From contig NC_021219.1 of NCBI RefSeq assembly GCF_000392435.1, positions 540,001 to 572,000 on the forward strand: a stretch of DNA of 32,000 nucleotides, written 5' to 3'. The translations under genes and the position numbers were made by a program. Source of the stretch: Candidatus Saccharimonas aalborgensis. Its GTDB lineage: Bacteria; Patescibacteriota; Saccharimonadia; Saccharimonadales; Saccharimonadaceae. The first letter of the stretch is position 1; each line of letters begins with the position of its first letter. The notes under the pieces are model-generated. The model was not told the origin of the DNA, searched no databases, and was given only the letters and a program-made list of their open reading frames with translations. This document shows positions 28,679 to 32,000 of the stretch, piece by piece.

Positions 28679-31090
28679 ATGAACGGAATTCATGTGGTAA
28701 AACGCGATGGCACCCGCGAACCATTTGACGCCAACAAGATCAATCTCGCGCTTGTGAAAGCAAGCGAGGGTTTGCCAGATCAGATTCAAAAAGTTGTGCA
28801 GGTAGCGACTGAACTGCAACTTACACTCTTTGATGGAATCACTAGTGAAGAGTTAGATGAAGCAGTTATTCATACGGCACTTCAGAATGTCAAAGATGAT
28901 CCTGATTTTGATACTATCGCTGCACGGCTGCTGCTCAAGAATGTCTACAAGAACATCCTGGGCGACTATAAAGACGACGCCGAGCTCAAAAAATTACACG
29001 AGAAGGCTTTTCCTCAGTACTTGAAGACAGCGGTCAAGGAGGGACTTCTCGATAAGCGAATGGTTGACCCAGCTTTGTTTGATGTTAAGAAACTTGCGGC
29101 TGCACTTGACCCGCAACGTGATGCACTGAGCAAATATCTTGGGGTTATTACCAATAAGAATCGCTATGCACTTCGTAAACAAAATGGCGAGCCGGTAGAA
29201 ACCCCGCAATTTACGCATATGCGAATTGCCATGGGATTAAGTTTCAACGAAAAGGACCCTACCGCTGCGGCACTTGATTTTTATAGGCATATGAGTAATC
29301 TCGATTATTTGCCTGGTGGAAGTACGCGAGTCAACGCCGGAGGTTCATTTCCGCAACTATCGAACTGCTTTGTGATTGATGTCGACGATGACATGGAGGC
29401 AATTGCTAAATCGATTCGCGACACGATGTGGATTGCCAAGGGTACTGGCGGTATTGGTATCAGCATGAACAAACTACGTGCCGCGGGCAGTCCTGTCAAA
29501 ACGACAAATACGGTGAGTACGGGACCATTGCCGTTTATGAAGATGATCGATACTGCTCTGTTTGCCGTTAGTCGCAAGGGCAAGAAGGCTGGTGCAGCGG
29601 CTATTTATATGGAGAACTGGCATGTCAACTTTCCTGGATTTATGGAGCTCCGTCAAAATAGCGGTGACCCCTATTTCCGAACTCGGTTTGCCAATATCGC
29701 CGTTTACATCAGTGACGAGTTTATGCGCCGTGTGCAAAAAGAGCAGGATTGGTATATGTTTGATCCCGCCGAGACGCCTGATCTGAGCGAGCTCTACGGA
29801 GACGCATTTGCAAAGCGATACAACGAGTATGTCAAACTCGCAAAGGCTGGAAAACTGCGAGAGTTTAAGACCGTGCCTGCACGCCAACAGTGGCGACAGA
29901 TTTTGACGAGTCTTCAGGCGAGCAGCCACCCCTGGATCACCTGGAAAGATACCATCAATGTGCGCGCGCTCAACAACAACCGCAGCACCATCCATAGTAG
30001 TAATCTGTGTACCGAGATTACCTTGCCAAATGACGAAAAGAATATTTCTGTCTGCAATCTCGTGAGTATAAATCTGAGCGCCTTTCTAGATGTTGATAAA
30101 AAAGTCTGGGACTGGAAGCGGCTTGAGGCGGCAACACGTAGCGCCATTCGACAGCTTGATAATTTATGTGATATTACCGACACGCCAATTCCCGAGGCGA
30201 TCAACAGCATTCAGACGACGCGTGCTCTCGGGCTTGGCATCATGGGCTTCACTGATGTCATCGAAAAATTGGGTTATAGCTATGAGAGTGAAGAGGCCTA
30301 TGATACGATGGATCAACTCGCCGAATATATTAGCTACTATGCGATTGATGAATCAGCTGAACTTGCCAAAACGCGAGGGAGCTATCCTGATTTTAAGGGT
30401 AGTGGATGGAGCAAGGGTCAATTGCCGATCGACACTGTCGATGCGCTGGCCAAAGACCGTAGTGTCGCCGTAGATGTCACTCGCAAAACTCGTCTCGACT
30501 GGGAAGCGCTACGCAAAAAAACGACAAAAGGCATGCGTAATGCAACACTTATGGCGATTGCTCCGACAGCAAATATCGCCCACGTGGCAGGTACAACACC
30601 CGGTATTGACCCACAGTTTGGACAAATATTTAGCCGCAGCACCCTCAATGGCAAGTTTCTCGAGGTTAATACCAATCTTGTGCGAGATCTGAAGGCACTA
30701 GGTATCTGGAATGAAGTAAAGGACCAACTTCTCATCGAGCAAGGTGATCTGACGAATATCGATACAGTGCCGCAACACCTGAAAGACGTCTACAAGACAT
30801 GCTTCCAGCTCAGCCCATTCGCGTTTGTCGAAGTAGCAGCGCGAGCCCAGAAATGGGTCGACCAGGCAATCAGCCGCAATATGTATCTCGAAAGCCGCAG
30901 CATCGACGACATGGAGAAGGTCTATATGGGTGCGTGGAAGCGTGGTCTCAAAACTACCTACTATTTGCACATGAAACCGCGCCATCAGGCCGAGCTCAGT
31001 ACCGTAAAGGTCAACAAAGCTGACGCAATTGTCGATAGTAGCGGCGCGCGAAAGAGCGGATTTGGATTTGCAAAGAAGCAGGCGGCATGA
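28679..31090 (+). CDS. nrdA: Ribonucleoside-diphosphate reductase alpha subunit (class I, N-terminal ATP-cone), 803 aa
   Basis: ATP-cone start (VVKRDGTREPFDANKI). Active-site blocks LSNCFVI, NLCTEITLP and VCNLVSINL. C-terminal TTYYLH tyrosine pair. AGAGGG RBS. The 40-residue tail after YY contains no Cys. Confidence 0.93.
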   Translation: MNGIHVVKRDGTREPFDANKINLALVKASEGLPDQIQKVVQVATELQLTLFDGITSEELDEAVIHTALQNVKDDPDFDTIAARLLLKNVYKNILGDYKDDAELKKLHEKAFPQYLKTAVKEGLLDKRMVDPALFDVKKLAAALDPQRDALSKYLGVITNKNRYALRKQNGEPVETPQFTHMRIAMGLSFNEKDPTAAALDFYRHMSNLDYLPGGSTRVNAGGSFPQLSNCFVIDVDDDMEAIAKSIRDTMWIAKGTGGIGISMNKLRAAGSPVKTTNTVSTGPLPFMKMIDTALFAVSRKGKKAGAAAIYMENWHVNFPGFMELRQNSGDPYFRTRFANIAVYISDEFMRRVQKEQDWYMFDPAETPDLSELYGDAFAKRYNEYVKLAKAGKLREFKTVPARQQWRQILTSLQASSHPWITWKDTINVRALNNNRSTIHSSNLCTEITLPNDEKNISVCNLVSINLSAFLDVDKKVWDWKRLEAATRSAIRQLDNLCDITDTPIPEAINSIQTTRALGLGIMGFTDVIEKLGYSYESEEAYDTMDQLAEYISYYAIDESAELAKTRGSYPDFKGSGWSKGQLPIDTVDALAKDRSVAVDVTRKTRLDWEALRKKTTKGMRNATLMAIAPTANIAHVAGTTPGIDPQFGQIFSRSTLNGKFLEVNTNLVRDLKALGIWNEVKDQLLIEQGDLTNIDTVPQHLKDVYKTCFQLSPFAFVEVAARAQKWVDQAISRNMYLESRSIDDMEKVYMGAWKRGLKTTYYLHMKPRHQAELSTVKVNKADAIVDSSGARKSGFGFAKKQAA

Positions 31091-31155
31091 GATGAAGCAG
31101 CACTTGAATTAATCCACTAACACCACATCAACAGAATAATAGGAGGGGATACCAA

Positions 31156-31329
31156 ATGAACGCATCAACTATCATCAACGACAATATGTCACTCGAGGAA
31201 AAACTTCAAGCTATCAGTGATGCTATGGAGGCTGCGCAGGCCTCGGTAAACGAGCAGGCAGCCCGCTCGGGGCAAACGGCCGCACCAATTGATCCAGCGA
31301 CGTTTACGATTTGCGACGGCTGCGAATAA
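31156..31329 (+). CDS. Small ORF (57 aa) between nrdA and nrdB, ending in CDGCE
   Basis: Below the ORF-track size cutoff. Strong RBS TAGGAGGGGAT ending 6 nt before ATG 31156. Sequence MNASTIINDNMSLEEKLQAISDAMEAAQASVNEQAARSGQTAAPIDPATFTICDGCE. Same strand as the operon, in a different frame from nrdA. Confidence 0.55.
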   Translation: MNASTIINDNMSLEEKLQAISDAMEAAQASVNEQAARSGQTAAPIDPATFTICDGCE

Positions 31330-31436
31330 CCAGTGACTGCCAGGTGTAGCGCGCTCAGTTGAGAGTTAGCTTGTTTCGTGTCATACTATATATAGATATA
31401 TTAGTGAGCAGGATAAAAGATAAGGAGGAAACAAGG

Positions 31437-32000
31437 ATGGGTAAAATCTTAGGCTCCGGCATCCAAGACGGACTATTACTGAAACCAATCAACTATCAAT
31501 GGGCGATGGACCTCTATGATCAGGCAGTTGCGAACACGTGGTTTCCTAACGAGATTCAACTGGCGCAGGATTTAGCTGACTGGGAAAAAATGACCGATGA
31601 AGAGCGTCATGCAGTGACATTTTTGATGAGCTACTTCAACCCCAACGAGCTGTTGGTCAATAAGGCGTTGGCATTTGGTGTCTATCCCTACGTCAATGCA
31701 GCGGAGTGCCACCTCTATCTTGCCAAGCAAATGTGGGAAGAGGCGAATCACTGCATGGCGTTTGAGTACGTGCTCGACACGTTTCCGATCGATCGCGAAG
31801 CCGCCTATAGTGCCCATGTTGATGAGAAGGTCATGGCAGTCAAGGAAGAGTTTGAGACGAAGTACATCAAACGGATGACCGAAGACACGATGGATATCAC
31901 GACAACTGAGGGCAAAAAAGATTTCATCCGTAACCTTATCGCCTACAATATCATTCTCGAGGGCATTTGGTTCTACTCGGGATTCATGGTGGCACTTAGT
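31437..32000 (+). CDS. nrdB: Ribonucleoside-diphosphate reductase beta subunit, class Ic-like (first 188 codons; continues past window end)
   Basis: Open-ended, so absent from the track. AAGGAGG RBS at 31422-31428. Ferritin-like R2 blocks FNPNELLV, WEEANHCMAFEYV and IILEGIWFYSGF. Phe109 (31761-31763) sits four residues after the ligand His, where class Ia has the radical Tyr. Confidence 0.9.
   Translation, partial: MGKILGSGIQDGLLLKPINYQWAMDLYDQAVANTWFPNEIQLAQDLADWEKMTDEERHAVTFLMSYFNPNELLVNKALAFGVYPYVNAAECHLYLAKQMWEEANHCMAFEYVLDTFPIDREAAYSAHVDEKVMAVKEEFETKYIKRMTEDTMDITTTEGKKDFIRNLIAYNIILEGIWFYSGFMVALS

Follow-up and report, generated by a model that had tools for sequence, protein, structure and literature searches.

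Where does a class I ribonucleotide reductase (RNR) keep the cysteine pair that re-reduces its active site when the tail of its catalytic subunit has no cysteine? This question is raised by a 32,000-nucleotide stretch of the Candidatus Saccharimonas aalborgensis genome (NC_021219.1, positions 540,001 to 572,000, forward strand; hereafter the window, to whose positions all coordinates refer), in which nrdA, encoding the catalytic subunit, is followed by a small gene of 57 amino acids (aa) and then by nrdB. To our knowledge, all textbook class I RNRs carry the re-reducing pair on the catalytic subunit itself. The comparative analyses reported here make it likely that the 57-aa gene is the redox tail of a class I NrdA, detached by a single ancestral fission and still shuttling in trans. 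The features concerned are the following:

28679 to 31090, + strand: nrdA, class I RNR catalytic subunit, 803 aa, with ATP-cone, all-alpha domain and barrel; catalytic C230, C444 and C459
30971 to 31090, + strand: shortened NrdA tail past TTYYLH, 39 residues with no cysteine, including a GFGFAKK motif and followed by the stop
31140 to 31150, + strand: Shine-Dalgarno-like site TAGGAGGGGAT, 5 nucleotides (nt) before the ATG of the small gene; AGGAG/GGGG-type sites stand likewise upstream in relatives
31156 to 31329, + strand: small gene, 57 aa, probable detached NrdA redox tail, from its open reading frame (ORF), conservation, ratio of nonsynonymous to synonymous substitution rates (dN/dS) and operon linkage
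31192 to 31269, + strand: predicted helix, residues 13-38, with a conserved L-E-E-K-L-x-A-I block, from alignment, AlphaFold2 (AF2) predicted local distance difference test (pLDDT) values of 73-81 and a dN/dS of 0.16
31285 to 31326, + strand: terminal dithiol motif P-I-D-P-x5-C-x-G-C-E, residues 44-57, homologous to the end of unsplit NrdAs; dN/dS 0.11

A cysteine-free NrdA tail and a constrained small gene

The nrdA product matched the Pfam families of the barrel (PF02867, E 6e-161), the all-alpha domain (PF00317) and the ATP-cone (PF03477), and scored 1270 bits against NCBIfam NF005101 (cut-off 988). It contained five cysteines, at positions 230 (QLSNCF), 444 (SNLCTEI) and 459 (SVCNL) and, within the core, at 497 and 708. 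C230, C444 (the radical cysteine, in NLCTE) and C459 were invariant in an alignment of 33 NrdA sequences. The three catalytic cysteine blocks named by a first-pass annotation of the window were therefore located, and its claim that the tail has no cysteine also held for the 39 residues past TTYYLH, so that the redox pair expected of a class I enzyme on the tail of the same polypeptide is absent from this NrdA. The protein ends in GFGFAKKQAA. Such a basic G-F-G-F-A-K-K-type end (31050-31087) always terminated the shortened NrdA, with K-G-F-G at that place in unsplit relatives, and the small protein could dock there with its acidic helix.

The nrdA stop is TGA (31088-31090), with a further in-frame stop (TAA) 10 codons on. 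The small ORF starts with ATG at 31156, in another frame than nrdA and after a gap of 65 nt that holds TAGGAGGGGAT, and it ends in ..FTICDGCE before the stop at 31327-31329. The first-pass description of a 57-aa ORF with a strong ribosome-binding site (RBS), ending in C-x-x-C (here C-D-G-C-E) and not produced by simple read-through, was thus accurate for frame, second stop and terminus. Its label of the ORF as unannotated fails for the relatives, which NCBI and JGI records carry as 'hypothetical protein'.

The small gene occurred throughout the genus (36 of 36 genomes), well beyond what chance would give, at identities down to 42% and with no internal stops bar one frameshifted copy in an assembly full of frameshifts, and both the ORF and its terminal pair (C53 and C56) were kept, a conservation that the first-pass annotation had left to be established. 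One genome (G036, locus L034) was considered as a case of joint decay of nrdA, the small gene and nrdB. This was rejected, all three genes being frameshift-riddled in a 4-contig assembly, and the frameshifts are most likely indel errors of long-read assembly rather than marks of pseudogenes. Beyond the genus, the small protein was encoded in 316 species-representative genomes of GTDB, and a profile search of 1.84 billion proteins returned almost solely small free-standing relatives. Clustering of the family gave 3234 clusters at 90% identity and, at 50%, 161 representatives; almost every relative was free-standing and of about 40-110 aa, the full-length ones ending in C-x-[GS]-C-[QE].

Median dN/dS of the small gene was 0.18 overall and, by segment, 0.16 (helix), 0.48 (middle) and 0.11 (terminal motif), as computed with synonymous sites near saturation. 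An alignment of 13 diverse members showed E14, K16, L17, I20, Q28, G39, D46, P47, C53, G55 and C56 to be invariant. The start codon and a purine-rich site upstream of it were also kept in relatives. Judged by these substitution patterns, the small gene is under purifying selection. Were it instead an untranslated, decaying remnant of the old tail, such a dN/dS would not be expected despite the near-saturated synonymous sites, nor would a frame intact across 316 species to less than 40% identity, nor the relocation of the gene and its capture by phages with the motif intact; this explanation can be given almost no probability.

The small protein had no family in Pfam or NCBIfam. Its AF2 model consisted of a single helix (residues 13-38, pLDDT 73-81) followed by a low-confidence C-terminal tail. 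The only match among PHROGs was a weak one, of the helix to phrog_14482 (function not assigned there), and relatives in the ESM Atlas fell solely in 'hypothetical protein' clusters, one of them viral. A thioredoxin fold is not indicated, given the lack of any Pfam or NCBIfam match, the single modelled helix and the position of C-x-x-C at the extreme C-terminus.

Operon linkage was surveyed at the best 80 of the 316 species loci, in 74 of which nrdA was visible. In all 74, the NrdA tail had no cysteine and a GFGFAK-type end. In 42 loci the order was nrdA-nrdB-small and in 29 it was nrdA-small-nrdB, the others being cut by a contig end or standing alone. The pairing of a cysteine-free NrdA tail with the small gene was repeated in further members of the genus and family, and no cysteine-less tail without the small gene was found among the genomes examined. 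The correlation between the small gene and loss of cysteine from NrdA tails, on which the first-pass hypothesis depended, is accordingly without exception in these genomes. The locus has the layout of a split RNR, with a catalytic subunit lacking tail cysteines and the cysteines on a separately encoded partner of the same operon. A full Saccharibacteria-type nrdA-small-nrdB operon was also seen on a contig of a metagenome-assembled genome (MAG) labelled Verrucomicrobiia (L156), which, to judge by that operon, is probably mis-binned.

The proximity of the two ORFs in basal members, where the small gene starts just 10-25 nt past the nrdA stop (G145 and two metagenome contigs), would fit a rejoining of NrdA and the small ORF in expression, by frameshifting, read-through or other recoding, giving a normal covalent tail. 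In the window, however, 65 nt and a change of frame separate the ORFs, with the second in-frame stop between them and with a strong RBS and ATG proper to the small gene. Moreover, nrdB lies between the two genes in 42 of the 80 species, phage copies stand alone, and the start codon and purine-rich site are conserved, which makes rejoining extremely unlikely.

Origin of the small gene

The closest database matches of the window NrdA were all from Saccharibacteria (labelled Candidatus Saccharimonas or Saccharibacteria). A phylum-wide genome search retrieved three unsplit NrdAs with long tails from other Candidate Phyla Radiation (CPR) lineages, at 58, 55 and 53% identity, ending in ..CPVDPQERLQCDSCQ, ..VPVDPQEKFLCESCQ and ..CPVDPQERLNCESCQ, respectively. 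The tails of these nearest unsplit NrdAs end in P-V-D-P-x5-C-x-S-C-Q, the same terminal motif as that of the small protein, which ends in APIDPADLTMCEGCQ in most species and in CPIDPQERLLCEGCQ in a basal member. About 15 residues at the end of the small protein hold this ancestral motif, whose general form is P-[IV]-D-P-x5-C-x-[GS]-C-[QE]. Ends of a related kind were found in NrdAs at about 39% identity (e.g. GDPNLNICESCQ). Among cultured phages, NrdA was only distant (at most 38% identity) and gave no help toward the sister group.

The shortened NrdA tail and the small protein, taken together, were collinear with the unsplit tails, the break falling directly past the common K-G-F-G block. In each of the three unsplit genomes, the sole genome-wide match of the small-protein profile was to the last 15-26 residues of the NrdA frame. 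By BLASTP, the small protein of a basal member aligned end to end with the last 24 residues of a full unsplit NrdA (13/24 identical, E 1e-8), and hhalign matched the small-protein profile to the last 18 residues of another (E 2.7e-4). In a maximum-likelihood NrdA tree built without the tail columns, the 18 of 18 cysteine-less NrdAs formed one clade nested among unsplit ones, with a support of 100 in the Shimodaira-Hasegawa-like approximate likelihood ratio test (SH-aLRT).

Because of the end-to-end homology, the collinearity and the nesting of the cysteine-less clade among unsplit NrdAs, the simplest history is that one ancestral fission within the tail linker turned the NrdA redox tail into the small gene. 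On the same simplest history, the linker was afterwards replaced or remodelled as the conserved helix, and the small gene later shifted beyond nrdB in many lineages. The evolutionary half of the first-pass hypothesis, that the shuttle tail became a separate gene, is borne out by the homology of the last 15-24 residues to the C-terminus of unsplit NrdAs and by the single clade.

Descent from the tail of a class II NrdJ was also considered and rejected, the NrdJ tails of other Saccharimonadales ending in C-x-N-C-G-N..C-Y-V-C-T-x-C-G-S-T-x-G-C-S, a different cysteine-rich element.

In a genome of another CPR family (G272), a 38-aa ORF ending in ..GDPNLNICESCQ was observed right after nrdB (L115:5014-5130), with the NrdA tail intact (..GDPNLNICEDCQ). 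This ORF repeats the tail end in free-standing form and is missing from four related genomes. It seems to be a lineage-specific duplication, and possibly an independent first step to a split.

Function of the small protein and its phage-borne copies

Canonical class I tails (E. coli C754/C759; CX2C of eukaryotic R1) are disordered and carry a cysteine pair that reduces the active-site disulfide and is itself re-reduced by thioredoxin or glutaredoxin (PMC4078304, PMC9669993). The terminal motif of the small protein is homologous to the tails of related CPR NrdAs and in this respect like a canonical tail, from which it differs in not being covalently joined to NrdA and in having a conserved helix where unsplit tails have a variable linker. 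From this homology, we infer a dithiol-shuttle function in trans. The C53/C56 dithiol of the free small protein would reduce the C230-C459 disulfide of NrdA after each turnover, and the oxidised form would be re-reduced by thioredoxin, thioredoxin reductase or a system of the NrdH or glutaredoxin-like kind. The conserved helix, in place of the disordered linker, would probably dock the small protein on NrdA, and such docking would keep the tail near the active site without a covalent tether. The predicted complex of NrdA and the small protein scored 0.11, against a mark of 0.32, and was counted neither in favour of binding nor against it.

The closest parallel to this arrangement comes from class II. 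In the split RNR of Pseudomonas aeruginosa, NrdJb acts mainly in thiol-disulfide exchange via its C-terminal cysteines and is required in vivo (PMC4520616). As in NrdJa/NrdJb, the catalytic subunit here is without redox C-terminal cysteines and a downstream, separately encoded polypeptide has them. The system nevertheless falls outside the NrdJa/NrdJb family, being class I with NrdB and having profile relatives that are almost all small and free-standing. NrdJa/NrdJb is a class II enzyme dependent on adenosylcobalamin (AdoCbl), in contrast to the class Ic-like enzyme with its NrdB partner described here; NrdJb is much larger and folded, unlike the 57-aa partner predicted as one helix and a flexible tail; and the origin here is independent, with a small gene that moves within the operon and is phage-borne. 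The first-pass statement that no precedent had been described can stand for class I in the literature searched and not more widely, NrdJa/NrdJb being a precedent in class II (PMC4520616). In reviews of RNR extensions, class I tails belong to the alpha chain, and a detached form goes unmentioned (PMC9669993); no account of a detached class I tail was found in the limited literature library used, and an earlier description elsewhere is possible.

Splitting of a class I NrdA is found in another setting as well. The NrdA of Aeromonas phage Aeh1 was reportedly split by insertion of a homing endonuclease, which is said to cut the catalytic core into two large fragments and, unlike the present case, to free no tail-only peptide. 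The Aeh1 nrdA is likewise a class I gene in two separately translated parts, the polypeptides of which must reassemble (PMC3045599). Dedicated electron donors linked to RNR are encoded in or beside nrd operons; examples are NrdH redoxins and, in Facklamia ignava, a glutaredoxin that is fused to NrdB (PMC6187632). The small gene resembles them in being linked to RNR and, in its phage copies, in adjoining nrdH. These donors have a thioredoxin fold and reduce the tail, unlike the small protein, which has no thioredoxin fold in its predicted structure and would equal the tail itself.

The small protein was encoded on 23 IMG/VR contigs, where its gene neighbours included terminase, portal, RusA, amidase and RNA ligase. 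No RNR large subunit was found in any of the 5 small-gene phage records checked, three of which were estimated to be 99-100% complete. On four viral contigs (L086, L088-L090) and one phage-like metagenome contig (L070), the end of the small gene overlapped the start of a gene for a canonical NrdH redoxin (CVQC, WSGFRPD), and no RNR gene was present in L086 or L088, the two of these records checked. By this overlap, the small protein is connected with a redoxin and is shown to work as an independent module. Phages of Saccharibacteria presumably use the small gene to speed host reductase turnover during replication, and the copies without RNR, sometimes overlapping the start of NrdH, would presumably boost the host RNR in this way. 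Whether the gene is thus a free, diffusible 57-residue class I shuttle that has become mobile, carried by phages alone or beside NrdH and without an RNR to speed the only reductase of the host, is a proposition with even chances.

Two further contigs with the small gene were noted. One, a phage contig, had an ORF of 871 aa in which Hint, intein-splicing and LAGLIDADG domains were recognised, i.e. an intein-containing gene (L073:9201-11816). The small gene was also present, with no RNR nearby, in a MAG labelled Cellvibrionaceae (L211), a locus which may be a phage contig.

Several points weigh against a shuttle in trans. Hits of the profile to NrdA tails cover a short span (15-26 residues), and each on its own is weak (E 0.009-0.15 per genome); they draw their weight from position and repetition and from the BLASTP and hhalign results. 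The helix has no recognisable likeness to the linker of unsplit tails, so that the small protein may have taken on an additional or altered role. Its translation and thiol exchange are what we infer from genomic data. In addition, artificial small dithiols reduce RNR active sites directly, though poorly (PMC4520616), so that direct reduction of the active site by thioredoxin is conceivable and may operate in this NrdA.

A change of job would take these points further. The small protein, although derived from the NrdA tail, could now be a redox-sensitive regulator or inhibitor of RNR (following a Sml1-like logic) or a sensor, with thioredoxin or the glutaredoxin-like protein reducing NrdA directly. 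The absence of a counterpart of the helix in the unsplit linker would suit such a role, as would the frequency of regulators of host nucleotide metabolism on phages and the moves of the gene within the operon and onto phages, by which it behaves as an independent module. The strongest constraint falls, however, on the ancestral dithiol motif at the C-terminus (dN/dS 0.11, with C53, G55, C56, D46 and P47 invariant), the small gene was never found missing where the NrdA tail is without cysteine, and the overlap with the phage NrdH gene points to a redoxin substrate. A changed job is on these grounds unlikely.

nrdB, genomic context and significance

Two further features lie downstream of the small gene:

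31359 to 31387, + strand: promoter-like site TTGAGA-17-CATACT with TG (extended -10), before nrdB; consensus match only
31437 to 32000, + strand: nrdB, 348 aa, continuing past the window; class Ic-like signature read from its translation

Within 31359-31395, between the small gene and nrdB, the promoter-like site overlaps an AT-rich palindrome. With this arrangement, nrdB may have its own regulated promoter and the small gene may be co-transcribed with nrdA. In NrdB, the first ligand position is held by the Glu of NELLV, and a Phe follows the ligand His by 4 residues in EEANHCMAF. By these residues it is class Ic-like, with Phe at the position of the radical Tyr and Glu in place of the first Asp ligand.

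The class Ic-like Glu/Phe signature gives some room to a role in metal handling, in which the two cysteines (possibly four, in a helix-mediated dimer) would bind metal and the small protein would be a metallochaperone or assembly factor for the Mn/Fe cofactor of NrdB. Metal binding is common for C-x-x-C pairs, and the small gene stands beside nrdB in both gene orders. Against this, the motif is inherited from NrdA tails and is also found in distant CPR NrdAs, and the gene occurs on phages without any NrdB, some copies lying beside NrdH. A chaperone would also leave unexplained why loss of the NrdA-tail cysteines tracks gain of the small gene exactly, and this role is considered very unlikely. 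Each of these alternatives accounts for less of the evidence than a tail-derived shuttle acting in trans.

The genome is closed (1,013,781 bp, 99.9% complete). It contained a single match to the RNR barrel family, with no NrdD and no NrdJ-like second match, and NrdAB is therefore its only RNR. A thioredoxin (WCPPC), a thioredoxin reductase (CATCDG) and a glutaredoxin-like protein (CAFC) were encoded elsewhere in the genome. These epibionts have no source of deoxynucleoside triphosphates (dNTPs) besides NrdAB, which makes it probable that they cannot do without the small protein.

Most other Saccharimonadales searched (L038-L064) possessed instead only a distant (about 25% identical) class II NrdJ-like RNR of about 930 aa, which ends in a cysteine-rich tail of zinc-finger type; the order-level tally includes one NrdJ-like row from G069, on which no conclusion depends. 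Only a few Saccharimonadales families have the class I operon, a distribution that suggests replacement by transfer within the CPR.

A whole lineage, including oral and wastewater Saccharibacteria and among them a MAG labelled Nanosynbacter, thus appears to run its sole RNR with the cysteine pair on a separate mini-protein. RNR surveys that score tails on NrdA alone would misjudge these enzymes. A likely function can be assigned to a large small-protein family that has so far had no name, and its viral members would represent a new kind of phage-borne nucleotide-metabolism gene. If the shuttle is indeed mobile, it would be a 'tail-only' auxiliary metabolic gene and a natural experiment in which covalent tethering of the RNR tail is dispensable. 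The lineage offers a natural system in which to ask how the tail reaches its target in NrdA, whether a tether is of consequence and from which redoxin the tail is supplied.

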